Shown: positions 7,120 to 29,672 of the stretch, piece after piece
How the letters are laid out: every line of letters begins with the position of its first letter
Numbering within the stretch: position 1 is the first letter of the stretch
Source of the DNA: an uncultured Eggerthellaceae bacterium
GTDB lineage: Bacteria > Actinomycetota > Coriobacteriia > Coriobacteriales > Eggerthellaceae
Assembly (NCBI GenBank): GCA_947626195.1
Contig: CANQRF010000007.1
Span: forward strand, 15,948-79,947
Length of the DNA: 64,000 bases
Direction: 5' to 3'
Translations under genes and position numbers: made by a program
Notes under the pieces: model-generated
Databases searched by the model: none
What the model saw: the letters and a program-made list of their open reading frames with translations, nothing else
What the model was told of the DNA's origin: nothing

Positions 7120-8083
7120 AGAAAATTACCCGCGAACCCTTATCCTCAAAATTGAAAGGTATCTCAAGAAGATCGGAGAGAGCGTTTCTTAAGCATTCTT
7201 GAGCATCGGGTTCCACATAAAACAAAAGGAAACCACCACCTCCGGCACCAAGCAACTTTCCACCTGTCGCGCCATGGGAAACACCCTTTTCGTAAATGGC
7301 GTCGATATATGGGGGTGACACCTTCTCCTCAATGCTTCGCTTTAGCTGCCATGAATAATTGAGGAGTTCGCCAAAACGCGAAAGATTGGACGATTTGTTG
7401 GTCAGCAATTGCTGGGCTTCATCAACAAGAGACACCATCTCATTCAGCGTTTCCGTCTTTTTATCGAAACGCGTCGATTTTTGGATTTCCGCAGATGTTC
7501 GCGTGAAGCCAGTAAAAAAAAGGAGGAGATTGTTTTCTAGTTCTCTCTTTTTTTCTGGATATATGATCACCGGAGAGACCTCAAACCCCTCTTCTGAAAA
7601 ATCAATGCGATTGAACCCGCCAAAGGCAGCAGCGATTTGATCTTGCCAGCCACCCGCTTCATCGCAGAGTTCCCTCTCTAAATGAATAGCTTCCTGTGCC
7701 AATTCTTTCGGGCTTTTGTAAGAACCCTTAAGACTATGAAAAGCCTGGAGCATTCCTACAGCAAACGAGGACGATGTTCCAAGTCCTGTTCTTGCCGGAA
7801 GATCACCCTCATAGGTAAGACGAATTTCTCTCATATCCAGAAGTCGCATAGCTTCCCTGATGACAGGATGCTCGATATCCTCAAGAGAGCTGACACGTTC
7901 TATGCGAGAGTAAGAAAGTTCGGTTGAATAGCTGAAGAATCTAGGAAGATGCCTTGCGTTCACATAGCAATACTTGTCGAACGTGGTCGAAAGTACTGCG
8001 CCACCATGTTTTTTAAAATGAGCCGGGACATCGCTTCCCCCGCCAAAGAATGACATTCGGAATGGTGTTTGAGTAATAATCAC
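7091..8083 (-). CDS. hddA: GHMP kinase, D-glycero-alpha-D-manno-heptose-7-phosphate kinase type, copy 1
   Basis: 330 aa. N-terminus MIITQTPFRMSFFGGGSDVP, GHMP motif II PARTGLGTSSSF and C-terminal GGKLLGAGGGGFLLF. Confidence 0.75.
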   Translation of the reverse strand: MIITQTPFRMSFFGGGSDVPAHFKKHGGAVLSTTFDKYCYVNARHLPRFFSYSTELSYSRIERVSSLEDIEHPVIREAMRLLDMREIRLTYEGDLPARTGLGTSSSFAVGMLQAFHSLKGSYKSPKELAQEAIHLERELCDEAGGWQDQIAAAFGGFNRIDFSEEGFEVSPVIIYPEKKRELENNLLLFFTGFTRTSAEIQKSTRFDKKTETLNEMVSLVDEAQQLLTNKSSNLSRFGELLNYSWQLKRSIEEKVSPPYIDAIYEKGVSHGATGGKLLGAGGGGFLLFYVEPDAQECLRNALSDLLEIPFNFEDKGSRVIFCEPEEYDLG

Positions 8084-17032: not shown

Positions 17033-18344
17033 TTACCCGAACCAGCCGCGCCCAACACAGCGCGACTCAAAGCAGAGCTCACCCGCCATATACGGCATGC
17101 CCCAGCAGAGCCGCTCTGCAGCCAATCGTTCGCAGGCCACCTCTTCTTCATCCTACCATCAGCCAAAGCATCGTTCGTCCTCCAGTGAGCTTTCGCGCGA
17201 ATACGTGAAAACGAAGGACGGCACGACGATCGTCCGCGTGAAGAAGCGTAAGAACAAGGCGAGGCGCCGCATCATCATTGTAGCGGTGGTCGTGCTTGCC
17301 ATCGTGGGCATCGGCGCCGGCACGGTGTTCGGCCTTACCTCGATGGGCAAGGCAAACCTTCACCAAGCACCCGAAGAGATCGAGGTGAACGAGGAGGCCG
17401 TTTCCTTTAACGATGGACGCACCGTCGAATACAACGGCCACACCTACGCATATAATGAGAACGTAGTGTCCATCTGCCTCATCGGCTACGACCGCACGGG
17501 CAACCAGGAGGAAGAGGGCATACGTGGCCAATCAGACGCCATTATGGTGGCCGCGCTCGACACCGAGACCGGCAAGGCGTCGGTGATTGCCATTCCGCGC
17601 AACTCCCTCGTTGATGTGCCCGAGTATTACAACGGGCAATACCTCGGCACCCAAAAGGATCAGATCTGCCTGGCCTTCGCCTCGGGCGCTAACGACGCCG
17701 AGAGCAGCGAGATCGTCACCACGGTGGCCTCGCGCGTGCTGTACAACATGCCTATCAACTATTACTACGCGATCGACCGGCAGGCGCTTGGCATGCTTGC
17801 CGACGCCATCGGCGGCGTGTCGCTGACCGCGCTGCAGACGATTCCCGGCACCAACATCTATGAGGGGGAGGATGTGATCCTCCTGGGGAACAACGCCATC
17901 AAGTATGTGCAGTGGCGCGACACCACGAACTACCTCTCCCCGCTCGATCGCCAGGAACGGCAGATCCAGTTCGTGAAAGCCCTTGCCTCGCAGGCGCTTT
18001 CCGCCCTGAAGAGCAACCCCTCGATCATCGTTGACCTCTTCAACGCGATGTCGTCCTATGCCACAACGAACCTTGGCGTGAGCGAGGTGAGCTATCTGGC
18101 GAGCGTGCTTGCCTCGCACGGCATTTCAGACCTGAATATGATCAAGCTTGAGGGAACGATGGAGCCGCGCGAGTATTCTTCGGAATTCATTCTCGACCAG
18201 AGCAGCGTTTACCAGACAGTGCTCGACGTGTACTACACGCAACTGCCCGATTCCGAGAGCACTGCTGCGGGCGATGCGAACGCTGCTGAAAACACCGCTT
18301 CAGAAGCCTCTGGCGCCGCAAGCGAAGGTAACAACGTCGAGTAA
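17010..18344 (+). CDS. LytR-CpsA-Psr (LCP) family cell-wall glycopolymer ligase
   Basis: 444 aa with an N-terminal disordered tail, a TM (RRIIIVAVVVLAIVGIGAG) and an LCP core (ICLIGYDRTG...SDAIMVAALDTETGKASVIAIPRNS). Confidence 0.85.
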   Translation: MMSKRPSDYPNQPRPTQRDSKQSSPAIYGMPQQSRSAANRSQATSSSSYHQPKHRSSSSELSREYVKTKDGTTIVRVKKRKNKARRRIIIVAVVVLAIVGIGAGTVFGLTSMGKANLHQAPEEIEVNEEAVSFNDGRTVEYNGHTYAYNENVVSICLIGYDRTGNQEEEGIRGQSDAIMVAALDTETGKASVIAIPRNSLVDVPEYYNGQYLGTQKDQICLAFASGANDAESSEIVTTVASRVLYNMPINYYYAIDRQALGMLADAIGGVSLTALQTIPGTNIYEGEDVILLGNNAIKYVQWRDTTNYLSPLDRQERQIQFVKALASQALSALKSNPSIIVDLFNAMSSYATTNLGVSEVSYLASVLASHGISDLNMIKLEGTMEPREYSSEFILDQSSVYQTVLDVYYTQLPDSESTAAGDANAAENTASEASGAASEGNNVE

Positions 18345-18498
18345 CACCGTTGAGTCATGGACGAGGGTGCAAGGCATTTCTCACTGTTCCACTTAGAGTA
18401 AATCAGCATCGGTTTAACTTTTGTTTAATCGTAATTAGTATAAATATGATATAACAATATCTGCTATCACGAAGACTTCTTTCTGAGAGGAATACACG

Positions 18499-19914
18499 AT
18501 GCCTTTTGTGGGCAGAAACGCCGAACTTTCAACTCTTGAGCGGCTCTATACGAGCGATCGCTTCCAAATGCCTATCATCTACGGGCGTCGCCGAGTCGGG
18601 AAAACATCGCTCATATCTCATTTCATCCAAGGAAAACCTGCAATTTATTTTTCTGCGATTGAATCAACCGCCAAAGAAAACCTTATGGCGCTCAGCAGGG
18701 CTATCGTAAGCTTGGAATCTGACGGCATTCCTCGTGCAAATGACGCGCCCGCGCTTACTTTCAACACTTTTGGCGAAGCCTTCACCTATGTGTTCGATTT
18801 GGCGCGCACGCGCCGCATCGTTTTCGTCATTGACGAATATCCTTATCTCGCGCTCAGCGATAGATCGGTCTCCTCGGTGCTGCAGCATCATATAGACACC
18901 GAAAAAGATACGAGCAAGCTCTTCCTCATTCTCTGCGGCTCGTCCATGAGCTTCATGGAGCATCAGGTGCTTGGCTACAAGAGCCCGCTCTATGGAAGGA
19001 GAACCGCCCAGATTCGCGTTAAGCCATTTACGATCATGCAAGCAGCAGAGCTTTTGCATACAAGCAACGCCGAAGATATCGTATCGTGGTACGGCATGGT
19101 CGGCGGGGTTCCCCTCTATCTTGAGCAGTTCGATCCAGCGATGAGCCTGCAGGAAAACATGGCGTTCAACGTCCTGCGGCCTGCCTCGTTTCTTTACGGT
19201 GAGCCCGACTCATTTCTGCAGCAAGAGATACGGGAACCAGCGCGCTACAATGCTCTCATCCGGACGATTGCCGAAGGCGAGGGCAAGCTCACTGAGATTG
19301 CCGATTCGACAGGCATTGAGCGCTCTGCCGCCACGAGCTACCTAAAAGGTCTCATGGAGCTTGGCATCATCCGCCAAGAGAAGCCGGTAGTTGATGCGAA
19401 TCGAAAAAAGGTGCGCTACGTTTTATCTGACAACCTTTTCAGGTTCTGGTATCGCTTTGTGCCGCGGTATCTCACGCCCATCCAGGCAGGACGTTTCAAG
19501 GAAGTGGGTTCCCTCATCGCAAGCAAGCATCTCAGCTCCTTTCTGGGTCCCGCGTTCGAAGAGATATGCCGTCAATGGCTCGTTGCCTCTATGGGCACAA
19601 ATGACATTCCGCTCATTCTCGACATCGGACGATGGTGGGGAAACGACCCGCTGCGAAAGGAGCAGGCAGAGATGGACATCGTCGCTATCTGCGAAGATGG
19701 CAGCTTGATCTGCGGAGAATGCAAGTGGCGGGAAAAGCCCGTTGATGCATCCGTGCTAGCTACCCTGCAACATCGAGCCGACCTCATCAAGGAGGATCGT
19801 TTCGTGCGCTTCCTCCTGTTCTCGAAGAGCGGTTTCACCGATGAGTGCCGTGCGGCGGCTGAGAAAGCGAATTGCGTGCTCATAAGCCTTGCCGACATGG
19901 GCCTTGGCGCCTAG
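18499..19914 (+). CDS. AAA+ ATPase of the archaeal-ATPase/DUF234 family with C-terminal PD-(D/E)XK-like module
   Basis: FVGRNAELSTLERLY...IYGRRRVGKTSL (Walker A) and VFVIDEYPYL (Walker B). The C-terminus EMDIVAI...GECKWREK resembles the D..E.K nuclease-fold signature of DUF234. The upstream region is AT-rich. Confidence 0.75.
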   Translation: MPFVGRNAELSTLERLYTSDRFQMPIIYGRRRVGKTSLISHFIQGKPAIYFSAIESTAKENLMALSRAIVSLESDGIPRANDAPALTFNTFGEAFTYVFDLARTRRIVFVIDEYPYLALSDRSVSSVLQHHIDTEKDTSKLFLILCGSSMSFMEHQVLGYKSPLYGRRTAQIRVKPFTIMQAAELLHTSNAEDIVSWYGMVGGVPLYLEQFDPAMSLQENMAFNVLRPASFLYGEPDSFLQQEIREPARYNALIRTIAEGEGKLTEIADSTGIERSAATSYLKGLMELGIIRQEKPVVDANRKKVRYVLSDNLFRFWYRFVPRYLTPIQAGRFKEVGSLIASKHLSSFLGPAFEEICRQWLVASMGTNDIPLILDIGRWWGNDPLRKEQAEMDIVAICEDGSLICGECKWREKPVDASVLATLQHRADLIKEDRFVRFLLFSKSGFTDECRAAAEKANCVLISLADMGLGA

Positions 19915-20156
19915 TTATTGGGCAATGATCGCCCTGTTCTTTTTGGAGCTGTGGCGGGAGGTGCGAAGACATCGGACACGAAAACGACATTCGGATGCTA
20001 GACGGGAAGGGCGATAGTAGCAGCTATCGCCCTAACATAAAAACCAAGCGCCGCCCGTCCCTTTAATGTCTATCGGGCTTTGCCAGCTCCTATTCTACCA
20101 TCTTTCGCGCTCCGCGCCTATACCCGGCACCCGTTCTGTAAGAAACCGTCATTTAC
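19901..20156 (+). repeat. Direct repeat copy A (about 250 bp), partner at 23870-24118
   Basis: By-eye alignment to 23870-24118 gives roughly 80-90 percent identity with two small indels. It includes a shared small ORF, a shared hairpin and the shared block TATCGGGCTTTGCCAGC...ATTCTACCATCTT...CCGTTCTGTAAGAAACCGTCA. Confidence 0.85.
19925..20017 (+). CDS. Possible 30-aa peptide (N-terminally shortened copy of the 23849-23980 peptide)
   Basis: ATG at 19925 gives MIALFFLELWREVRRHRTRKRHSDARREGR with stop TAG at 20015-20017 inside the hairpin stem. Same frame and stop position as copy B. Expression is not shown. Confidence 0.25.
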   Translation: MIALFFLELWREVRRHRTRKRHSDARREGR

Positions 20157-20293
20157 CGCAAAGGCGGCCCACTACTGCATTCGCAGTTTAGCAAATGCGC
20201 ATACAGTATTCACGACTATTTAACCAGCGAGCACGATTTTGCTTTGCCTAATCTAAATTAGTCTAATCGTAATTAGACAAAATCATTTCATAT

Positions 20294-20382
20294 ATACCAG
20301 CAGCCAAAACTGGCTGATAAACACGATTGGTACCAGCAATCAACAAATATTGGTACCGCGGATAAACAACCTTGGTACCGCT
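20294..20382 (+). repeat. Left inverted-repeat arm with phased GGTACC-centred sites
   Basis: TTGGTACC at 20327-20334, 20350-20357 and 20372-20379 (22-23 bp apart), plus a degenerate ATACCAGCA at 20294. The arm aligns in reverse complement to 21916-21993. Confidence 0.75.
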
Positions 20383-20622
20383 TAGACTGAGCCTACAATC
20401 CCGTTCGTGCGCCCAATACGAGGCGACATGACGAAAAAGGACCCGATGCCTATGTCGAAGAGCAGAAAGATCATTATGATGCTTGCCAAAGGAGAGTCGA
20501 GCAAGACCGATACCGCAACGGCGCTGCACGTGATCAAGCGCGACGTGTCGGCGGCTTCGGCATCGTCCTTCCCCATATCCGGCGCTGGTAAAATAAGCGG
20601 GAACGTAAGAGACGGAGGATAG

Positions 20623-21773
20623 ATGCAGCAGTTCGAAAACGCCAGCGATAGCGCCCAGAATATTCCAGACGGTGTCTGGAATATTCAGAATACATCCAAT
20701 GAGCTGGCTTTTCCCAACGATATCCGATTCGACAACCACCCATCATTCGACGAGTTGGCCGATGCCATCGAGCAGGTCACAGAGCTCGCCCGCAACATGG
20801 CGGCGCGGCATGTGTATGGCGACCAGCTCTGGGCGTATTGGAACAACGGCAGGATGATCGTCGTATACGAGCAGGACGGGAGCGATCGGGCCGCGTATGG
20901 CGACCAGGCCCTCACCAAGCTCGCAAGGCGCCTGACCGCAAAGCTGGGACGGGGCTTCTCGCGTGCGAACCTCTACAACATGCGCCTGCTCTACCTCACC
21001 CACAGGAACTTCCAGACGCTGTCTGGAAAATTGTCATGGTCCCATTACTGCGAGACCATCACCTTAGAAGACGAGCTGAAACGGAAGTTCTACGAGCGCG
21101 AGGCCGCGAACTCGGGCTGGAGCGTCCGCGAGCTGCGCAGGCAGATGAACAGCCTGCTCTTCGAGCGCATACTGAACGCCAAGGACGATGCCAGGAGAGA
21201 ACACGTTCTGGCGCTGGCGAACGAAGGGGTGGCGTACAGCAAGCCCGCAGACGCCATTCGCAGCCCGCTCGTCCTCGAGTTCCTCGACATCCCCGACGAC
21301 GTCGCGCCTTTGGAGAGGGACCTCCAGCGGGCCCTGATCGGGCAGATCGAGAAGTTCATGCTCGAGCTCGGGCGGGGCTTCATGTTCGTGGGCAGCAACG
21401 TCCGGATCCCCGTCGGGGACGATACCGACTATGCGGACATGGTCTTCTACTGCAAGCCGCTTAGGGCATACGTGCTCATCGAGTTGAAGACGGACAAGCT
21501 GATGTCTTCGGCGGTGGGCCAGATCAACGAGTATCTGAACTACTACGCTGCCGAGGTCAACGACGAATACGACAATCCCCGATCGGCATCATCTTGTGCA
21601 CGGACAAGAACAACGTTCGGGCGGAATACGTGATCGGAGGGTTGAGCAATGCGATTTTCGCCTCCACATACACTCTGAGGCTCCCCGACAAGGGGCAGCT
21701 GGAAGACCAGGTGCGCAGGACCATCGAGGCCAACGAGCGCAGGGCGCTCATAAGCGGCGGAGGTGATGCGTAG
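20623..21773 (+). pseudogene. DUF1016/YhcG-type PD-(D/E)XK nuclease gene, disrupted by a frameshift at a C-run
   Basis: The ORF 20623-21633 encodes ...YADMVFYCKPLRAYVLIELKTDKL (D...ELK nuclease motif) ...EYDNP, then leaves frame. The shifted frame from 21582 continues with IGIILCTDKNNVRAEYVIGGLSNAIFASTYTLRLPDKGQLE... to TAG at 21771-21773. This is the expected family C-terminus. The break lies at CCCC 21577-21580. Confidence 0.8.
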
Positions 21774-21915
21774 CCTCGACCCGGATGCGGAGCACTTCGC
21801 GTTTTTGGACGAGACGGCGGTCAGCGGAACTATCAACACGGTGCTGGCGGCGTCGTGTCTGGTGCGGGTTCATGGAAGCGCGCGATTACTTCGCCGAGAA
21901 GAAGCTGGCTGGATA

Positions 21916-21993
21916 GCAGTACCACCTGCTATTTACCCGCGGTACCAAAAATCATTGATCGTTGGTACCAAGCCAGCTGATTGCCGGTACTGC
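21916..21993 (+). repeat. Right inverted-repeat arm with phased GGTACC-centred sites
   Basis: AGTACC at 21918, GGTACC at 21941 and 21964 (the latter inside the palindrome TTGGTACCAA) and GGTACT at 21986, spaced 23, 23 and 22 bp. The flanks CGCGGTACCAA are the reverse complement of the left-arm TTGGTACCGCG. Confidence 0.75.
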
Positions 21994-22065
21994 GAGTGTT
22001 TATTACTCACCAAAACTGACACCGCTGCACTATCGCTTGCTTTGCTTTCATAAATCTGAAAACAT

Positions 22066-22142
22066 CGATTCGCACAATCTCATAGTTATGCGCATAATCT
22101 CAACTTTGTGCGAATAAAGTCATGATTGTGCGCATAATGGTT
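22066..22142 (+). repeat. Tandem array of four 20-bp units (core TGCGCATAA / palindrome TTATGCGCATAA) upstream of the AlbA_2 gene
   Basis: Cores at 22069 (TTCGCACAA), 22089 (TGCGCATAA), 22109 (TGCGAATAA) and 22129 (TGCGCATAA), with exact 20-bp phasing. The segment is AT-rich. Confidence 0.85.
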
Positions 22143-22205
22143 AGATTATACTGTTCCCCATAAGCTTTACAGCACCCATTACGACCCTTCGAAGATTGGA
22201 TATAT

Positions 22206-23397
22206 ATGGGCTTCATAAGCGATTACAAAGATCAAATCGAAGGCCAAAGCCTTGAATTTAAAGAAGCTGGAACTCGATTGCCGGCTAATCTTTGGGAAAC
22301 GTATTCGGCCTTTTCCAATACCGAAGGCGGTCAGATCATACTTGATGTATCTGAGCATCATAATGACGATGGCCAGTGACGATGAGCTTGCGCGAATGGA
22401 GCACGATGCGCTCTCTAATGCCGATAACGCCATTGTTGAAGATTTTGATATGTCGGCCTTCAATAGCTCAACGATCGCGACTTACCGAAATCTTCTCACT
22501 CATGAGAAGCCCTCTCACCCTTGGCTAAGAGACGATGACGAGGACTTTCTCTATCATTTACGTGCTATTGACCGTGATCGTGATGGCGAATACCACCCAA
22601 CCAGAGCGGGGCTCTTGGCATTCGGCAACGAGTTTGAGATATTGCGAATTGTCACTGATTACCATCTCGATTATCGTGAGCAAACTGATCCGGATGTTCG
22701 GTGGAACAATCGGCTCGACTCCATGAGCGGAGACTGGAGCGGCAATCTCATTGACTTCTACCTCAATGTCACACAGCGCATCGATCGAGCATTGCCCCAA
22801 TCGTTTGGCCTCAACGATAACGGGATGCGGCACACGAGCCGTACCGAAATCAACGATGCAATCCACGAGGCAATCGCAAACGCTTTGATTCACGCCTATT
22901 ATGGCACAGGCGCAACCGTTACAGTTGTTTTAGAGCCTCATAGGCTCTTGGTTTCCAATTCGGGGACGTTTCTTATCAGCAGGGAAGTTGCTATTGCGGG
23001 AGGGATAACCGAGACCCGTAACCCCATTCTTGCACGCATATTTTCACTTATTGGAATTATTGATCGTGCAGGCAGTGGGTTAAGGAAGATCTATTCAACC
23101 TGGGAAGAGAAGTTTAAGGAGACGCCCCTTCTTAAGGAGGCATACGCGCCGGATAAAGTTGATATTGAGCTGCCGCTTTCAATCAACTTCAACGTGAAAC
23201 GGCCTTACACACACGTTCCTCATGAGGCAATTCTTGACCTCTGCCATAATCAGGGCGAGATAACGGTGAAAGACCTCACAGCCCAGCTTGGAATGAAGCA
23301 AAGCACCGCTCAATTTGCCTTGAGGAGCCTTGCCGCACAGGGGCAACTTGTCAGCGAACGGAGGGGCAGGGCTTTCGTTTATCGTCTTGCGAATTAA
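22206..23397 (+). pseudogene. AlbA_2 (Schlafen-like) + HATPase_c_4 + C-terminal wHTH protein gene, frameshifted near the 5' end
   Basis: ATG at 22206 gives MGFISDYKDQIEGQSLEFKEAGTRLPANLWETYSAFSNTEGGQIILDVSEHHNDDGQ, stopping at 22377-22379. This is the hallmark AlbA_2 N-terminus (SLEFKE...AFSNTEGG). The rest of the protein (TRAGLLAFGNEFE..., ALIHAYYG..., wHTH LGMKQSTAQFALRSLAAQGQLVSERRG) is in a different frame, in ORF 22252-23397. Confidence 0.75.
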
Positions 23398-23456
23398 ATT
23401 GAATCGAGCCACGCGGTCATATACGCCTAAAGTTCCTTTGTTCGTTTAATCGAGCA

Positions 23457-23640
23457 AGAATGCGCACAATGACGAAATTGTGCGCATAATCTTAACTTTG
23501 TGCGAATAAAGTCATGATTGTGCGAATAAAGTTGTAATTATGCACATAAAGTTATCTTTAAACGCATAATCTGCCAATTGTGCGCATAATCTCATGATTA
23601 TGCGCGCAGGCTTAACTTTATGCGCAATGCGCGCATCCCC
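23457..23640 (+). repeat. Tandem array of nine 20-bp units (same family as 22066-22142) downstream of the AlbA_2 gene
   Basis: Cores start at 23461, 23481, 23501, 23521, 23541, 23561, 23581, 23601 and 23621 (TGCGCACAA, TGCGCATAA, TGCGAATAA, TGCGAATAA, TGCACATAA, AACGCATAA, TGCGCATAA, TGCGCGCAG, TGCGCAATG). The period is exactly 20 bp. A roughly 45-bp stretch (ATAATCTnAACTTTGTGCGAATAAAGTCATGATTGTGCG) is shared with the upstream array. Confidence 0.85.
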
Positions 23641-23848
23641 TTTTAACAAATCCTCCTACCCGTTCCATATGAAACCATCATCTATGAAGATGCTGCACTG
23701 CCCTTACTGGCACGATACGCAGCTGTCACACGGCGTAAAGTTTTTGGGTTTGTCAACAATGCTGGCATGCAGGCGCTTCCTGCGCTACCATGTTTCGGCT
23801 GGCAAGTCCGATGCCGGGCGGCGCTTCTTCATGGAAAGGAGCACCGCT

Positions 23849-23980
23849 ATGGTGGAACGAGTTCTAGCTGCCTTGGCAGCATTGGCAACGATAGCCCTGT
23901 TCTTTTTGGAACTGTGGCGGGAGGTGCGGAAACATCGGACACGAAAACGACATTCGGATGGTAGACGGAAAGGGCGATAG
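23849..23980 (+). CDS. Possible 43-aa small membrane peptide with strongly basic tail
   Basis: RBS-like GAAAGGAG lies 7 nt upstream of the ATG at 23849. The peptide is MVERVLAALAALATIALFFLELWREVRKHRTRKRHSDGRRKGR, one hydrophobic helix plus an Arg/Lys-rich tail. The 28 C-terminal residues are conserved in repeat copy A. The listed 128-aa ORF start (23594) lies in the repeat array and is not credible. Confidence 0.35.
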   Translation: MVERVLAALAALATIALFFLELWREVRKHRTRKRHSDGRRKGR

Positions 23981-24118
23981 CGGCAACTATCGCCCCTAAT
24001 TAAAAAACCGGCGCCGCCCGTGGCTGTAAGTCTTATCGGGCTTTGCCAGCACATATTCTACCATCTTCCGCATCCTGTGCCCATACCCCCGCCCGTTCTG
24101 TAAGAAACCGTCACTTAC
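23870..24118 (+). repeat. Direct repeat copy B, partner of 19901-20156
   Basis: See copy A. This copy abuts the stop codon of ecfT (24115-24117). Hairpin GGGCGATAG-CGGCAA-CTATCGCCC here versus GGGCGATAG-TAGCAG-CTATCGCCC in copy A: identical stems, different loops. Confidence 0.85.
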
Positions 24119-24885
24119 AACAAGACGCCGAGGAGGATGGCAACAACCAAAATGCACACGCAGATGACGAGCGAGACGACATCGAGCGTCGCGAAGGGAT
24201 ACTGCTTATAGCCGCTCTCGCGCGTGCGGAGGTTGAACCCGCGCACCTCGGCGGCGATCGCCGCGCTGTTCGTCTTGCGCACCGACGACACCAGCAGCGG
24301 GATGCACAGCGGCACCATCAGACGGATCTTCTTCACGATGGAACCCTGGTCGAACTGCACGCCGCGCGCCGTCTGCGCCTCCATGATACCCGCCATGTCG
24401 TTCATGAACACGGGGATGAAGTGCACCGTGGAGGTGAACGTGAACGCGTATTTGTAGGGCACGTGCAGCACCTTCACCACCGAGTTCGCGAGGTCGGTCA
24501 TCTTGGTCACATACATCACGAGGAAAAGCGGCACGGCAGCCGCCACGAGGCGCAGGATGATCGTCACCGCGCCGATGACGCCGCCCGTGCCGATGTAGCC
24601 CCACGGCAGCGGAACGAGCACCATGCCGGTGGAGTTCGTGAGCAGCTGGATGACGGCGAGGATGAGCGAGAATATCGTCACCGCCTTCGCAAGGCCCATC
24701 GCCTGACGCGTCATCTTGCAATGCGCCGCCAAGGCGAAATCGAAGATGAGGACGCACGCGAGGAATATGAGGTTCGACGTGCAGAAGCACGCGACCGAGA
24801 TGAGCAGCGCGCAGAACAGCTTTGCAACGGGGTTCATCCGATGAAGCAAGCTGTTGCCCGGCACGTATTCGAGAAACCCTGTCAT
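24115..24885 (-). CDS. ecfT: ECF transporter transmembrane (T) component
   Basis: 256 aa polytopic protein with a typical EcfT N-terminus (YVPGNSLLHRMNPVAKL) and the Ala-Arg-Gly coupling motif (MEAQTARGV). It follows two ECF ATPase genes. Confidence 0.85.
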   Translation of the reverse strand: MTGFLEYVPGNSLLHRMNPVAKLFCALLISVACFCTSNLIFLACVLIFDFALAAHCKMTRQAMGLAKAVTIFSLILAVIQLLTNSTGMVLVPLPWGYIGTGGVIGAVTIILRLVAAAVPLFLVMYVTKMTDLANSVVKVLHVPYKYAFTFTSTVHFIPVFMNDMAGIMEAQTARGVQFDQGSIVKKIRLMVPLCIPLLVSSVRKTNSAAIAAEVRGFNLRTRESGYKQYPFATLDVVSLVICVCILVVAILLGVLL

Positions 24886-25724
24886 CGCGGCTCACCCCCT
24901 TCCGCAATTTCGAGGCCCAATGCGCGCTCCATTTCGGAAAGCGTGTTCGCCTGCCCGACGGCGGTGTTGGCCAGCTGCGGGTGCTGTGAGCCGAGCGCGA
25001 GTGAGAGCGCGACCATCTGCGGTGCGACGAGTGACGCCTCCTGCGTGAGGACGCGGTCGCGCAAAAGCTCGTAGGTGGGCCCTTGGGCGAGCACCCGCCC
25101 GGCCGACATCACGATGATGGACTCGGCGTAATCGGCGACCACCTCCATGTCGTGGCACACCATCACGACCGTCGTGCCGCGCTCGTGCAGTCGGCGGATG
25201 ATCTCCATCACCTTCGTGCATTCGCGGAAATCGAGACCCGTCGTCGGCTCATCGAGCACGACGACCGGAGGTTGCAAGACGATGATCGAGGCGAGCGCGA
25301 GCAGCTGCCGCGTGCCGCGATTCAACAGGAAGGGGTCATCATCGGGGTTCAGCCCGAACGCCGCCATGATCTCGTCGGCGCGCACCTCGGCCTCGGGCGA
25401 TTCCTTCCCCAACGCCTTGAAGCCGAACATCATTTCCTCGCGCACCGTATTGTTGCAGATCTGCCGGTCGGGGTTTTGGAAGAGAAAGCCCACGCGCTGT
25501 GCGAGCTCACTGGTTTTGAGCTCGGTGGTGGGCGTTCCGTCGATGAGCACCTGACCCTCGGTGGGCTTGAGCAGCCCGTTGATGAGCCGCATCGTGGTGG
25601 ACTTCCCCGCCCCGTTCGTGCCGACGAAAGCGACGAACGAGCCGTCCTCAATACGGAAACTCACATCGCGCAAAACGGCGAGCTCGCCATCATAGGAGGC
25701 GCTCACATGGGAAAACTCAATCAT
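24882..25724 (-). CDS. ecfA2: ECF transporter ATPase subunit A2
   Basis: Walker A GTNGAGKST, Walker B VVVLDEPT and ABC fold. There is a 4-nt overlap with both neighbours. Confidence 0.85.
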   Translation of the reverse strand: MIEFSHVSASYDGELAVLRDVSFRIEDGSFVAFVGTNGAGKSTTMRLINGLLKPTEGQVLIDGTPTTELKTSELAQRVGFLFQNPDRQICNNTVREEMMFGFKALGKESPEAEVRADEIMAAFGLNPDDDPFLLNRGTRQLLALASIIVLQPPVVVLDEPTTGLDFRECTKVMEIIRRLHERGTTVVMVCHDMEVVADYAESIIVMSAGRVLAQGPTYELLRDRVLTQEASLVAPQMVALSLALGSQHPQLANTAVGQANTLSEMERALGLEIAEGGEPR

Positions 25725-26590
25725 CGGGCGCCTCCTTCTTCCGAAGATGCGAGCGCAAGCACCTGCTCGGCCATCGCCACGGCGTCGTTCACGTTCTTGC
25801 AGACGGCGCCCTCGTAAAGCCCCGCGGCCTTCAAATCGTGGCAGAGCGTGGTCGAACGGGGGCAGTTGACGCCGATGGCCAAGAGCTCGTCGGCATGCTC
25901 AAGCACATTCTCGGGACGATCGGCAAAGCGAATGCGCCCGTCATCGATCACCACCAGTAGGTCGGCATAGTCGCACAGAAGCGCGATCTTCTGCTCAACA
26001 ATGACGACCGTCGTCCCATGTTCGCGCGCATAGCGGCGCAACAGCTCATAGACAGCGACCGAGCTCGCGGGATCGAGCTCAGCGGTCGGCTCATCGAGCA
26101 CGAGCACCTCGGGGCGAAGCGCCACGATCGCGGCGAGCGCCACCTTCTGCTTCTGTCCGCCCGAAAGCGAATCGATGGTGCGGTCGCGCAGATCGGCGAT
26201 GCCCATCGCATCGAGCGCCTCGGCGACCCGCGCCTCGATTTCCTCATGCGCGACGCCGAAGTTCTCCAGCCCATAGAGCATCTCGTCCTCAACGATGGAG
26301 GAAACCATCTGGGAATCGATGTCTTGGCACACGCTGCCCACGCGGCGCGAGATCTCGGTGAGGTCGCACTCCACCGTATCGAGCCCGCAGACGTTCACGC
26401 TGCCGTAGAAATCGCCCGGATAGCAATGCGGGATGATGCCGTTCATCGCATAGGTGAGCGTCGATTTTCCCGACCCCGCGGCGCCGGTGATGCCCACGAA
26501 AGCGCCATCGGGAATCGTGAGGTTTATATCGCGAACCACCGGATCGGCAGATTCGCGATACGTGAAACTGAAATTGCTGATCTCAATCAT
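25721..26590 (-). CDS. ecfA1: ECF transporter ATPase subunit A1
   Basis: Walker A GAAGSGKST, signature LSGGQKQKV and Walker B VLVLDEPT. Confidence 0.85.
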   Translation of the reverse strand: MIEISNFSFTYRESADPVVRDINLTIPDGAFVGITGAAGSGKSTLTYAMNGIIPHCYPGDFYGSVNVCGLDTVECDLTEISRRVGSVCQDIDSQMVSSIVEDEMLYGLENFGVAHEEIEARVAEALDAMGIADLRDRTIDSLSGGQKQKVALAAIVALRPEVLVLDEPTAELDPASSVAVYELLRRYAREHGTTVVIVEQKIALLCDYADLLVVIDDGRIRFADRPENVLEHADELLAIGVNCPRSTTLCHDLKAAGLYEGAVCKNVNDAVAMAEQVLALASSEEGGAR

Positions 26591-26633
26591 GTCGTCCTAC
26601 TTGCTCAAGCACGCTTTTCGCAGGTCATCAACA

Positions 26634-27212
26634 CTATTTCTTCAGCACCTTGCGCAGCGGCACCACGAGAATCTGCACGAGGATGCAGTTGAAGAGCGCC
26701 GTGCCGAACACCATGGGGATGTAGGTGATGAACGTGGCGAGGAAGGGGTTTCCGCCCAGGCCGCAGCCGACGATGAAGGCAAACGTATAGCCCGAAACGA
26801 CCGTTGAGATGAAGGTGTTCACAAGCGGGTTGATGTCGAGCTTGCCAATGCGCATGGGCACGAGGATCAAAAGCCCGCAGATGAGCGCACCGAGCGTCTC
26901 GGATGCGAGGTTCACCCACGGCGTGGCGTTGAGCATCGGGATCTGGCAGATGAGGCCGGCGATGATGCCGATGATGACGGCTTGCCCGACGTTCGGACGT
27001 GTGAGGATGATCGCGAGGCAATACATCGCGATGATGAAGTTCGGCTTCATGCCCGCGAAGGTGAGCACCGTGCCGAGCGTGAGCTTGAGCACCGCTCCAG
27101 CGGCGAGCAGCACGGCGATCAGGATGAGATCGTTGATCTGCAGGCCCTTCTTCTCGACGGTTTTCACCTCGCGCTTCTGCGCTGCCGGGGCTGTGGCTAC
27201 TTGTTGTTCCAT
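26634..27212 (-). CDS. trpP: ECF S component, TrpP-type (tryptophan) substrate-capture protein
   Basis: Small 6-TM protein with GMKPNFIIAM and IGIIAGLI blocks resembling Bacillus TrpP/YhaG. Start reassigned to the ATG at 27212 (MEQQVAT), preceded by AAAGGAAG. It lies immediately downstream of a T-box leader. Confidence 0.6.
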   Translation of the reverse strand: MEQQVATAPAAQKREVKTVEKKGLQINDLILIAVLLAAGAVLKLTLGTVLTFAGMKPNFIIAMYCLAIILTRPNVGQAVIIGIIAGLICQIPMLNATPWVNLASETLGALICGLLILVPMRIGKLDINPLVNTFISTVVSGYTFAFIVGCGLGGNPFLATFITYIPMVFGTALFNCILVQILVVPLRKVLKK

Positions 27213-27242
27213 TTTGTTTACTTCCTTTCTTTCTCTGCCCAC

Positions 27243-27500
27243 AAAAAAAGATCTGTCCCTTTGCTAAAGGACAGATCTTCAAATCTGCGGTGCCACCTTT
27301 ATTGGCTCATACGAACCCCCTCATGAACGTGCCATCACACGCTCTGCCATTAACGCAGGCTCACGGTCCAGATACTCGGCAAGCTTTTCACCTGCCTTTC
27401 CCCTTTCCCTCGGCGACCCATTTACCACCCAGCGTTCCTACGGGAATCCCAGCTACGCCCGCTCTCTGTGAGTGCTTTGATGGCTTGACTTTCGCCTCAT
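27243..27500 (-). promoter_or_regulatory. T-box riboswitch leader with intrinsic terminator (candidate Trp specifier)
   Basis: On the minus strand: AGAGAG box, candidate specifier GGAACGC-UGG-G, and T-box core AAUAAAGGUGGCACCGCAG (27285-27297 on the plus strand). Directly after comes the terminator AGATCTGTCC-loop-GGACAGATCT plus T7 (27243-27278). The 5' boundary is approximate. Confidence 0.65.
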
Positions 27501-27749
27501 CGGTTTCTGCTATTCAGTTGTGGACATAAGATAACACAGAAAAGCAGATGTTGTTAGTATTTTTTTGGTTTATCATGTCTTTTTGAGCATGTGCGGCCTT
27601 GTCAACCGCCCCTGACCTTGGATGACGCTAAGATAGGCGCAGATTCAAAGCAGCCTGTGCGGAGCAGTTTCGCTTCGGCATGGCGAGGGGGAAGCTTTTA
27701 AGGAGAATGCGCATGCCCGCAAGTCGAGCAAACGCAGAAGGAACATACC

Positions 27750-29672
27750 ATGCCCGATCGATATAACCAACGCGGAAACAACCAGCGTGCAAACGGCCAA
27801 CGCGGAGACGACCGGCGTTCTAACGACCGGCCGGCCAATCTGGTCGGCGGCAACAACGGTGAGAACCGTGCGAGATTTCGCGAAGACGTCTTCTATCGCA
27901 ACACCAACCAGGGAACGCGCAACACACTGCGTCCGGCAAAGGCGCAGGGGATGGCAAATGGCGCGCCCGTCGCGCAGAATGGCGCATATCCGGTTGCCGA
28001 TCAGCAGCTTTCCGATTTCAGCCGCTCGTCGGCAACCTATCAACGGGGCGGTCGCGCCCGAACGCGTGCTTCCGAGGCGGAGGCCCAGTTCGCCCAGCGG
28101 CTCCAAGGTGCGAGTGAGCCTCCGGCAGAACGGCAGCAAACTCAGCGCGGGCCGCAGGAGGCACCATACCAGACGCAACAGGCTCACCGGCAGGCGCAAC
28201 AGGCTCGTCAGCAGGTGCACGAGACTCGTCAGCCACACCCGCAACAACCTTATCCCCAGAATCCCCAGCAGCCTCGGCAGCCTTACGGCATGCCGCAAAA
28301 CGGCTATCGACAGAACCAGTTCCAGCGGGGAAGCGCCGCCTATGGCGACGTTCCCCATTACGATGTGCATGCGAGCCGCTCCGAGCGCGCGCGAGCGAAA
28401 AACGGCTACCAAGGCTATAGCGCCACGCGTCGTGTACAAGCGCAGCGCAACGGATCGAACCTCACGGGTGAGGCGGCCTATTACGGCGACGCGAACCGTT
28501 ATTCCGCCAAACGCGCGAAGAAGCCGATCAACAAAGTTGCCGTCGGCGTGATAATCGCCGTAGCCGTTGTGCTGGCGGTGGGCGTTTGGATTTTCATGAA
28601 TCCGCGCAGCTTCCCCGTCACCGTGAACGGCATCGAATACACCGTCGATCGCGGCACCACCGTGGGCGACCTCATCGACGAGGGCTATGCCGCCCCGATG
28701 CCGGGCAACCTCTTGGCGATTGACGGCAATGTGATTGAAACCGGCGGCGGCGCCGAATACAGCGGCATGATCAACGGCGATGAGAACAACGATCGCACAA
28801 CCGAGGTGCATAAGGAAGATGTGATCACCATCAACAACGGCGGCGATACCACCGAGGACTTCACCGAAGAGCAGGTCGAGATCGCACCCCAAACTGTCAG
28901 CGGCGGCATCGGTTCCCTCCATGTGTTTCTGGAAGGCGAGCCGGGCATCGTGAACCGCAAGACGGGCGTGGTTTCGGGAATCACGCAGGACGAACCCGTG
29001 AAGGAGGTCGTAAACGCGGGCTATGTGAAGTTCAATGCCGACCCCGGGCAAAAGGTGATAGCCCTCACCTTCGACGATGGCCCTTGGCCGACATCCACCG
29101 CGCAAATTCTCGACGTTCTCGACCAATACGGCGCAAAGGCCACGTTCTTCACCATCGGTAATCAGGTAAGCGATAACGCCGACGTGGTGAAGCGCGCGAA
29201 GGCAGCCGGTCATCAGGTGGCCACCCACACATGGGACCATGCGAGCGGCTCGGGGCAGGGCGTGAACTTGGGCTATATGACCGCCGAAGAGCAGATCCAA
29301 GAGGTGGAGAAGGGCTTTGGCGTGCTTGACGATCTCTTCGGAGAGAAGGTCAGCCGCGTCTTCCGCTCCCCCGGCGGCAACTTCTCAGGCGACACGGTGA
29401 CGAACCTTCAGCCCTACGTCACCGCCGAGATAGGCTGGAACATCGATACGGAAGACTGGCGCCGTCCTGGCGTGGATGCCATCGTCAGCCAGATCGAGAG
29501 TGCCTCTTCGGGCAATGTCATCCTCATGCACGACGGCGGCGGGGATCGCTCTCAGACCGTGGAGGCTTTGAGCATCGCGCTCCCCTACCTCGTGAACCAG
29601 GGGTATCAGTTCGTGACCATCGACGAGCTGCTCGCGATGCAGGATTATTCGAAGATCAAAGTCGAGGAATAA
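27750..29672 (+). CDS. Membrane-anchored polysaccharide/peptidoglycan deacetylase (NodB domain) with long disordered N-terminal tail
   Basis: A roughly 250-aa Q/R/N/P-rich low-complexity tail, a TM (VAVGVIIAVAVVLAVGVWIF), a beta-rich linker, and a NodB core (ALTFDDGPW, ATHTWDH, FRSPGG, VILMHDGG). Confidence 0.8.
   Translation: MPDRYNQRGNNQRANGQRGDDRRSNDRPANLVGGNNGENRARFREDVFYRNTNQGTRNTLRPAKAQGMANGAPVAQNGAYPVADQQLSDFSRSSATYQRGGRARTRASEAEAQFAQRLQGASEPPAERQQTQRGPQEAPYQTQQAHRQAQQARQQVHETRQPHPQQPYPQNPQQPRQPYGMPQNGYRQNQFQRGSAAYGDVPHYDVHASRSERARAKNGYQGYSATRRVQAQRNGSNLTGEAAYYGDANRYSAKRAKKPINKVAVGVIIAVAVVLAVGVWIFMNPRSFPVTVNGIEYTVDRGTTVGDLIDEGYAAPMPGNLLAIDGNVIETGGGAEYSGMINGDENNDRTTEVHKEDVITINNGGDTTEDFTEEQVEIAPQTVSGGIGSLHVFLEGEPGIVNRKTGVVSGITQDEPVKEVVNAGYVKFNADPGQKVIALTFDDGPWPTSTAQILDVLDQYGAKATFFTIGNQVSDNADVVKRAKAAGHQVATHTWDHASGSGQGVNLGYMTAEEQIQEVEKGFGVLDDLFGEKVSRVFRSPGGNFSGDTVTNLQPYVTAEIGWNIDTEDWRRPGVDAIVSQIESASSGNVILMHDGGGDRSQTVEALSIALPYLVNQGYQFVTIDELLAMQDYSKIKVEE

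Follow-up and report, generated by a model that had tools for sequence, protein, structure and literature searches.

A direct repeat in the genome of an uncultured Eggerthellaceae bacterium carries the end of a short open reading frame (ORF) and, across its stop codon, a hairpin. The question is whether this is a gene with its own regulator or a chance frame in front of a terminator. The locus lies in a stretch of 64,000 nt (assembly GCA_947626195.1, contig CANQRF010000007.1, positions 15,948 to 79,947), called the window here, to which all coordinates refer unless another locus is named; L-numbers label loci in stretches of other family genomes, and G000 is the window's own genome. The repeat occurs twice, as copy A and copy B, and a sequence-only reading had proposed that it encodes a small membrane peptide resembling type I toxins. 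Our analysis suggests a two-gene module, complete in itself and of the type I toxin-antitoxin kind, a reading to which we give a probability of roughly 0.6. One strand would encode a candidate toxin, and the other a candidate antitoxin RNA.

The peptide gene and its predicted antisense partner

The 43-aa ORF with a ribosome binding site that had been proposed for copy B was found as described. It is preceded by the Shine-Dalgarno sequence (SD) GGAAAGGAG (23833-23841), whose AGGAG lies 7 nt ahead of the ATG. When 201 genomes of the family were searched in six frames, many short open frames with the same pattern came up, and the comparative set used below consisted of 41 intact modules from about 30 Eggerthellaceae genomes. 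These modules and a third copy in the window's own genome are the further copies of the peptide that the sequence-only reading had advised looking for. An ATG and a strong SD, 7-10 nt apart, were present in all 41 homologues. The peptides are 30-49 aa long, with one hydrophobic stretch of about 20 residues and a charged tail (consensus M-x-E-x-(I/V)-L...AA-x-AT(I/V)A-x-F-x-LE-x-W-R-E-x-K, then the tail). The tail had been called basic, and it is strongly so only in this genus; elsewhere in the family, K/R are mixed with D/E. Premature stops that remove it occur in 3 of the 41 members.

The ratio of nonsynonymous to synonymous differences (pN/pS) was 0.40 over 12 phylogenetically separate pairs (binomial p = 3e-16); for the helix part, which lies outside the antisense RNA described below, it was 0.32. 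By these comparisons, the peptide gene is real and conserved, and purifying selection acts on it. The 41 intact homologues and their pN/pS bear out the earlier view of a genuine small membrane-peptide gene with type I toxin architecture: the product is small (less than about 60 aa), hydrophobic, membrane directed, and encoded by a stand-alone gene, as expected of a type I toxin. No significant profile match was found to known toxin or holin-like families (Fst, Ldr, Hok, TisB, Ibs, Hol-Tox, and others). A word-indexed search with the 43-aa peptide in a collection of 5.8 billion proteins found no relative, which means that the gene is unannotated. The putative mRNA promoter of copy B agrees in position with the -10 boxes (TAGAAT, TATAAT, TACAAT) that lie 7-10 nt upstream of the 5' block in the 41 homologues. 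A sigma-54-like reading of TGGCACG near this promoter was rejected, as the spacing and the -12 element do not fit.

Downstream of every ORF lies GCGCCGCCCG and, 11-36 nt farther on, CGGGCTTTGCC(A/G)G, both nearly invariant. On the minus strand, 8-12 nt beyond the GGCAAAGCCCG block, an extended -10 box (TGnTAnnnT, as TGCTATAAT, TGGTAGAAT, TGGTATACT, and similar variants) was present in 44 of 44 modules, truncated ones included. Read along the antisense strand, the order is GGCAAAGCCCG-loop-CGGGCGGCGC, a short U/A-rich spacer, the hairpin, and, in most members, a U-rich tract. The minus strand of the two blocks would thus be the 5' hairpin of the antisense RNA, which is nearly invariant in sequence and not in structure alone. 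In copy B, the predicted RNA (about 24049 to 23960) covers the final ~20 nt of the ORF together with sequence 3' of it, and it folds into two hairpins (-35.3 kcal/mol, z = -2.6).

The two copies in the window share the stem GGGCGATAG-N6-CTATCGCCC with differing loops and the TAG stop inside it (20009-20032 and 23972-23995), just as the sequence-only reading had it. That reading suspected a constraint on the structure, for which the two-copy comparison held no compensatory change. Such changes have now been found: across the 41 sequences, the stem is kept with substitutions on both sides at nine of nine pairs (RNAalifold). The stop codon lies in the 5' arm only in this genus; it falls before the stem in L045 and L008, after it in the L051 group, and far upstream in L016, so that its place in the stem is not conserved across the family. 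The distance from hairpin to block is fixed at about 37-39 nt, and this constancy, while the stop drifts, indicates that the hairpin belongs to the minus-strand RNA and not to the stop codon.

The hairpin is best read as the intrinsic terminator of the ~90-nt antisense RNA. In most members it is followed on the minus strand by a U-tract (e.g., GGGACTAGTTGCCGCTAGTCCCTTTTTTCTT), as in intrinsic terminators; this tract is the reverse complement of Lys/Arg/Glu codons in the peptide tail. On the plus strand the hairpin is followed by an A-rich tract and lacks the form of an intrinsic terminator. An antisense RNA or a terminator role had been thought conceivable, and the convergent extended -10 promoter, the covarying stem, and the U-tract support it; by their conservation, they define an antisense RNA gene, whose transcript we infer.

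A covariance model (R1) was built from the module alignment. It matched 78 of the 201 family genomes and 31 of 64 genera, with one to six copies per genome, and wherever RNA and peptide matches were both listed, they abutted each other in antisense orientation. In the window's genome the model found four sites, namely copies A and B, the third copy (C), and a diverged element at a contig end. The last lies outside the window (G000:C13:48609-48705, equal to L107 1501-1597; 35.6 bits), 60 nt from the end of its contig. It shares the blocks and has a TGGTAGAAT promoter, but its hairpin differs (AACCACCCTTTTGAAGGGTGGTT). A DNA pattern scan for the blocks gave, besides matches in the family, about 16 in GC-rich Proteobacteria and other phyla, which had no ORF, UTR blocks, or -10 box and were used as negative controls.

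Pairing between the ends of the mRNA and a predicted SD switch

The 5' untranslated region (UTR) of every module has the form C(Y)GGCAAAGUCCG-N3-5-CGGGCGGCGC-UUC...GGAG. This sequence nearly repeats the beginning of the antisense RNA, and its reverse complement is found in the 3' blocks. In copy B, the 5' UTR blocks can pair either locally, as a hairpin, or with the 3' blocks. Pairs were counted on an alignment that joined the 5' and 3' segments of the 41 modules, with 23 proposed pairs. Standard pairing was found in 99.0% of the cells, versus 36-42% when the partner was slid by one to three columns. Two-sided changes occurred at nine pairs (46 cells), and none of 500 shuffles reached any of the five measures used. 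Examples are the change from GGCAAAG/CUUUGCC to GGCGGUG/CACCGCC in L029 and L030, and GGCGGAGC/GCUCCGCC in L028.

The cells without Watson-Crick pairs comprised 88 G.U against 7 A.C, and one position was U.G in 41 of 41 modules. Only the plus-strand RNA can form G.U pairs here, which places the constraint on the mRNA and not on the DNA; the mRNA should therefore reach the GCCRG of the 3' block or beyond. The alignment shows co-evolution of the 5' and 3' ends of the plus-strand RNA. At the fixed position, the UTR offers U.G and the antisense RNA C-G, which would always give the antisense RNA the tighter hold on the 3' site. In 40 of 41 members, the 5'-3' helix is part of the minimum free energy (MFE) structure of the predicted mRNA. 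For the 253-nt predicted mRNA of copy B, it pairs the 5' end with 24035-24050 (-107.4 kcal/mol, z = -3.7).

The long-distance helix is linked to the ribosome binding site by a second element. Directly after block 2, a conserved anti-SD (GCUUC) pairs with GGAG(Y) in the RNAalifold structure of the 41 UTRs, with switches from U-A to C-G in four sequences, and block 2 overlaps the base of this helix. The calculated cost of opening the SD, as a mean of the 41 mRNAs, rose from 4.2 kcal/mol for the mRNA alone to 8.8 kcal/mol with only the two 3' blocks masked, to stand for their duplex with the antisense RNA; it increased in 40 of 41 members and decreased in none. Control masks over the hairpin and spacer or over an ORF window of equal length changed it by -0.4 and -0.1 kcal/mol, respectively. 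From these folding calculations we infer a switch at the SD.

The mechanism that we propose is as follows. The plus strand would give an mRNA of ~250 nt for a single-helix membrane peptide of ~40 aa, the candidate toxin. From its strong extended -10 promoter, the minus strand would give the ~90-nt antisense RNA, the candidate antitoxin, which would stop at the hairpin overlapping the ORF's end. The mRNA would pair its 5' UTR with its own 3' region, and the antisense RNA would compete for the same 3' site, its pairing being perfect against the fixed U.G wobble of the UTR. Once the antisense RNA sat on this docking site, the freed leader would refold, the SD would be locked, and the peptide would not be made; the duplex of ~90 bp would probably be cut by RNase III. 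Both transcripts and the toxicity of the peptide are predicted elements of this scheme.

Copies, remnants, and distribution of the module

The features of the two copies in the window are given in Table 1.

Table 1. Predicted features of module copies B and A in the window
Feature	Coordinates	Strand	Remarks
Copy B, putative mRNA promoter	23762..23791	+	-35 CTGGCA, 18-nt spacer, -10 TACCAT; predicted start near 23798
Copy B, 5' UTR blocks	23799..23824	+	Block 1 CTGGCAAGTCCG, 23799-23810; block 2 CGGGCGGCGC, 23815-23824; conserved across genera
Copy B, predicted anti-SD/SD hairpin ahead of ATG	23820..23848	+	Anti-SD GCGCTTCTTC; SD AGGAG, 23837-23841; RNAalifold
Copy B, 43-aa peptide gene	23849..23980	+	MVERVLAALAALATIALFFLELWREVRKHRTRKRHSDGRRKGR; ORF with one hydrophobic helix and charged tail
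Copy B, antisense RNA, predicted ~90 nt	23953..24051	-	Covariance model R1, 85 bits, E = 1e-24
Copy B, hairpin	23971..23996	-	Stem GGGCGATAG/CTATCGCCC; read as antisense terminator; TTTCC after it; overlaps TAG stop
Copy B, 3' blocks	24011..24049	+	Block 2' GCGCCGCCCG, 24011-24020; block 1' CGGGCTTTGCCAG, 24037-24049
Copy B, genus-specific conserved extension	24050..24123		Antisense promoter region and CCGTTCTGTAAGAAACCGTCA; ends at ecfT stop codon
Copy B, antisense extended -10 promoter	24055..24063	-	TGGTAGAAT; promoter scan match
Copy A, 3' remnant of peptide ORF	19921..20017	+	Last ~31 codons; without promoter, 5' UTR, SD, and start codon
Copy A, antisense RNA gene, intact	19990..20088	-	No partner ORF; model R1, 73.2 bits, E = 8e-21
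Copy A, hairpin	20009..20032	-	Read as terminator of antisense RNA A
Copy A, 3' blocks	20048..20086	+	GCGCCGCCCG, 20048-20057; CGGGCTTTGCCAG, 20074-20086
Copy A, antisense extended -10 promoter	20092..20100	-	TGGTAGAAT

Modules are ~300-375 nt long, and alignment with the third copy gives ~375 nt in the window's genome, which holds two full copies (copy B and the third) and one truncated at its 5' end (copy A). The repeat noted by the sequence-only reading is real and longer than that reading had it: copy B runs from about 23750 to 24123, the 5' extension holding the promoter and 5' UTR, and copy A ends at about 20161. The third copy lies on another contig (G000:C1:135943-136222) with an intact ORF (MVERVLIALAALATIALFFLELWREVRRHRSRKRHSDGRREGR) and is 87-88% identical. 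It stands beside a tRNA-Arg gene (anticodon ACG; L005 8457-8533, plus strand), and tRNA genes also adjoin modules at L041 79-150 and L046 798-881. Integration hot spots are often found next to tRNA genes.

Copy A keeps the frame and the stop (20015-20017) of copy B and 25 of its last 28 residues, as had been claimed, with homology starting at 19921. It abuts the gene of a DUF234 ATPase (18499-19914, stop 19912-19914); a 5' module remnant was looked for upstream of this gene in the window, and none was found. The same junction occurs in a sister species, a rabbit-gut Eggerthellaceae metagenome-assembled genome (88% identity over 1736 nt), which means that copy A has persisted since before the two species split. 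Copy A would thus be a module that lost its toxin half and kept the antisense gene.

The loss appears to go in one direction. No ORF-bearing module lacked the antisense gene (0 of 41), and among 20 strong matches to the antisense model without a peptide match that we inspected, about 10-12 were 5'-truncated modules that follow immediately on an unrelated gene and retain the promoter, the blocks, the hairpin, and a few codons of the tail. A loss of the toxin with the antitoxin never lost is the expected pattern for toxin-antitoxin pairs. Antisense-only remnants (L108, L115, L117, L120, L124, L127, and others) lie directly after the stop of ordinary genes in the orientation of the lost ORF. Their RNA would pair with the 3' UTR of the host gene, and some may be captured 3'-end regulators or terminators.

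About eight of the 20 carried a different peptide family (MLKEIL...LPNW...RRKNK) on the same scaffold of 5' UTR blocks, hairpin, 3' blocks, and antisense promoter. Two peptide families on one scaffold suggest a superfamily of modules that shares its RNA parts. Members of the second family are 31-41 aa long (MLKEILxFxLxxLPNWxxxxxxxxD...RRKNK or ...YERWKYKQSDGAGEQ) and were seen at L109, L113, L119, L123, L125, L126, L057, L085, and L102, in Adlercreutzia, Enterorhabdus, and relatives.

By the DNA pattern scan, carriers of the module are Adlercreutzia, Enterorhabdus, Slackia, Senegalimassilia, Rubneribacter, uncultured Eggerthellaceae, and Collinsella tanakaei. Matches to the peptide profile were mostly in Eggerthellaceae, with a few in two other families of the order. 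The modules are multicopy, adjoin tRNA genes and accessory islets, occupy variable sites within a genome, and differ in copy number between relatives.

The surroundings of the window copies differ from those in the sister species. There, the order is an LCP gene, a full module, an AlbA_2/Schlafen-type gene, a second full module, the ATPase gene, a truncated module, and ecfT; in the window, it is the LCP gene, the ATPase gene, copy A, an IS21-derived remnant with DUF1016, the AlbA_2 gene, copy B, and ecfT. The accessory cassettes between LCP and ecfT (window 18345-24123 compared with L098 and L070) are thus ordered differently, with module copies at the joints, an arrangement that fits recombination between module copies. 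It also explains why the sequence-only reading saw a direct repeat closing off an islet. The IS21-derived DUF1016 segment (about 20313-22009) is absent from the sister species. That species has 257 additional nt (L098 2222-2478) relative to about 22375 of the window, in the 5' part of the AlbA_2/Schlafen-type gene, which indicates that the window's copy of this gene carries a deletion.

The extension at 24050-24123 is kept only in the copies of the window's genome and of its sister species, in all of them. The motif CC(C/A)(G/T)TTCTGTAAGAAACCGTCA marks the outer end of all copies in the genus, ~35 nt upstream of the antisense -10 (window 24092-24114 and 20130-20152; L005 about 7950-7972). The motif forms an imperfect palindrome, GTTCT-GTA-AGAAAC, that may serve the antisense promoter as an operator; it does not match the LexA box. 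A LexA box was ruled out for CCGTTCTGTAAGAAACCG, which does not fit the consensus GAAC-N4-GTTC. An Rfam search at E <= 1 over 18000-28000 of the window gave a T-box leader as its sole match (27264-27509, minus strand; 70.4 bits, below the gathering score of 93); it lies upstream of the energy-coupling factor (ECF) S-component gene of the ecfAA'T operon.

Weighing of the readings and comparison with known systems

The toxin-antitoxin reading has indirect support in the one-sided decay of the module, its ORF half lost repeatedly, its antisense half kept, and never the reverse, and in the tighter SD sequestration that folding predicts with the 3' site occupied. The multiple copies, the tRNA and accessory neighbors, and the three premature stops that remove the tail are further traits of this kind.

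Several observations weigh against it. The -10 box of the mRNA promoter in this genus (TACCAT) is poor, no good plus-strand terminator was found after the 3' blocks, and the U-tract of the antisense terminator is weak in this genus (CCCTTTCC; TTTCC). The pairs behind the pN/pS of 0.40 were chosen to be independent, but their family is multicopy, and gene conversion may occur in it. Most of the SD of copy B is paired in the MFE structure even without the antisense RNA, so that the size of the predicted switch varies between members. An hmmscan of seven diverse members against Pfam and NCBIfam (E <= 10) gave weak chance matches to unrelated families. A tblastn search of plasmids and phages gave no match, so that a classical addiction role is not evident. 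Some modules occupy the same place in related species (the Adlercreutzia loci L021, L023, and L043 share flanks), and many small membrane peptides of this architecture are not toxins.

In the most probable rival, the RNA architecture is real, but the peptide is a non-toxic small membrane protein, for instance a regulator or a membrane-complex subunit, with its expression tuned by a cis-antisense RNA and without any toxin-antitoxin logic. All the RNA and ORF evidence fits it equally well, and the shared location in Adlercreutzia, the lack of plasmid and phage copies in the tblastn search, and the lack of similarity to known toxins in Pfam and NCBIfam are in its favor. We nevertheless hold it to be unlikely. 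Such a role accounts poorly for several copies per genome at variable sites, copy numbers that shift between relatives, tRNA genes and accessory islets as neighbors, and the repeated loss of the ORF alone; nor does any conserved neighboring gene present itself as a possible partner.

A second rival takes the small RNA (sRNA) as the primary unit, with its targets or protein partner elsewhere and the peptide mRNA as one target or as a carrier. It draws on a related orphan sRNA in Rfam, the Collinsella-1 RNA motif (RF01700), which was described from Actinobacteria and from the human gut as a probable non-cis-regulatory sRNA (Weinberg et al. 2010, PMC2864571). The 3' half of the Collinsella-1 model can be aligned in nine related loci, on the antisense strand and immediately past the peptide ORF. 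The common elements are GCC-GCRRA-CCCG, a loop, CGGGC-RRCGC-AGGU, a spacer, and a terminal GC hairpin with a YUGCAR loop. The relatives score 14.7-24.3 bits, short of the gathering threshold of 35 bits, and the window copies gave no match to it at E <= 10; in Rfam, copy B alone had only chance matches, to mir-498 and CRISPR-DR28, the latter merely to GGCAAAGCCCG...CGGGC. The 5' half of the model (196 positions) has no counterpart in the ~90-nt RNAs, and no function or partner peptide is recorded for it. The shared position and strand in the nine loci point to a distant kinship of the antisense RNA with Collinsella-1, not to membership.

The near invariance of the antisense 5' hairpin also speaks for a primary sRNA, as do the antisense-only copies that persist behind unrelated genes (copy A in two species) and the use of one scaffold by at least two peptide families. 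The invariance is, however, explained by the three-way match of 5' UTR, 3' site, and antisense RNA, the RNA accompanies 41 of 41 ORFs, and the ORF itself is under selection. The orphans hold remnants of the ORF tail, which marks them as decayed modules and not as independent genes. We regard this rival as distinctly less plausible than a non-toxic peptide.

It is very improbable that the repeat is a miniature inverted-repeat mobile element, with the blocks as terminal inverted repeats of the DNA and an incidental ORF. Inverted repeats near both ends, several copies, and neighbors rearranged relative to the sister species would suit such an element. The excess of G.U over A.C cells does not, and the U.G kept in every module would leave both the DNA and the minus strand mismatched. 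Moreover, the ORF is under purifying selection, the copy ends show no target-site duplication, and the blocks are internal to the unit, with the promoters outside them.

The null considered by the sequence-only reading, a hairpin that merely terminates the ecfT operon and a chance ORF, has on its side a hairpin and T-tract on the ecfT strand, 120 nt past the ecfT stop, and can be discarded with near certainty, since copy A and the third copy are not beside ecfT and the module recurs with an intact ORF in dozens of other, unrelated contexts. The copy B hairpin may also stop read-through from ecfT, which would add an antisense transcript over the 3' end of the peptide gene. A leader peptide or attenuator was considered because the module lies directly upstream of an isopropylmalate-dehydrogenase-like gene in three genera; it was rejected as a general account, since the downstream genes differ and the one at copy B is convergent.

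The best reading of the comparative data is therefore a new type I toxin-antitoxin-like family, built like a kind undescribed for this phylum. A fuller claim, which we advance only tentatively and with the odds somewhat against it, is that this is the first type I toxin-antitoxin superfamily of Actinomycetota and has an undescribed control: the antitoxin RNA would mimic the 5' UTR of the toxin mRNA, displace the UTR from its co-evolving 3' docking site, and flip the leader into an SD-locked fold. If true, this would give a function to the Collinsella-1 motif, and antisense-only remnants such as copy A behind the ATPase gene would be retained anti-toxin "immunity" or captured 3'-end regulators. 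Eggerthellaceae are gut bacteria that metabolize drugs and polyphenols, and the module is widespread and unannotated among them. It offers a testable mechanism, an antisense RNA at the 3' end controlling ribosome binding at the 5' end, and suggests a role for an RNA motif orphaned since 2010. Its copies are also the repeats around which accessory, defense-type cassettes differ between sister species.

A 2025 paper limits the known type I systems to Proteobacteria, Firmicutes, and Tenericutes (PMC12390103), and the literature that we searched contained nothing linking such systems to Coriobacteriia. The closest parallels in layout are bsrG/SR4, txpA/RatA, bsrE/SR5, and yonT/SR6 of Bacillus subtilis, which likewise encode a small peptide, helical at its N terminus and charged in its tail, and have a convergent antisense RNA over the 3' end of the toxin mRNA, the antitoxin promoter being the stronger. 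SR4 binds bsrG mRNA at its 3' end, changes the folding around the SD, and prevents translation, and the duplex is cut (PMC8167048). Our fold calculations predict an SR4-like outcome for the present module. It differs from the Bacillus systems in belonging to another phylum and sharing no sequence similarity with them. Its own feature is the co-varying 5'-3' helix, which links the 3' site to the SD, together with an antisense RNA that copies the 5' UTR. To our knowledge, an explicit helix of this type with a UTR-copying antisense RNA is undescribed for SR4.

The other half of the design recalls hok/sok and aapA/IsoA, in which the toxin mRNA also pairs its 5' and 3' ends, with covariation and a sequestered SD; long-distance locking of full-length toxin mRNAs is an established principle for hok and aapA. 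There, the antisense RNA is directed at the 5' part and comes into play once the 3' end has been trimmed, whereas here it would cover the 3' partner of the long-distance helix itself. Unlike those systems, the module has no mok-like coupling ORF, and it shares no sequence similarity with them. By analogy, it resembles the 3'-overlapping Bacillus systems combined with a 5'-3' lock of the hok and aapA kind.

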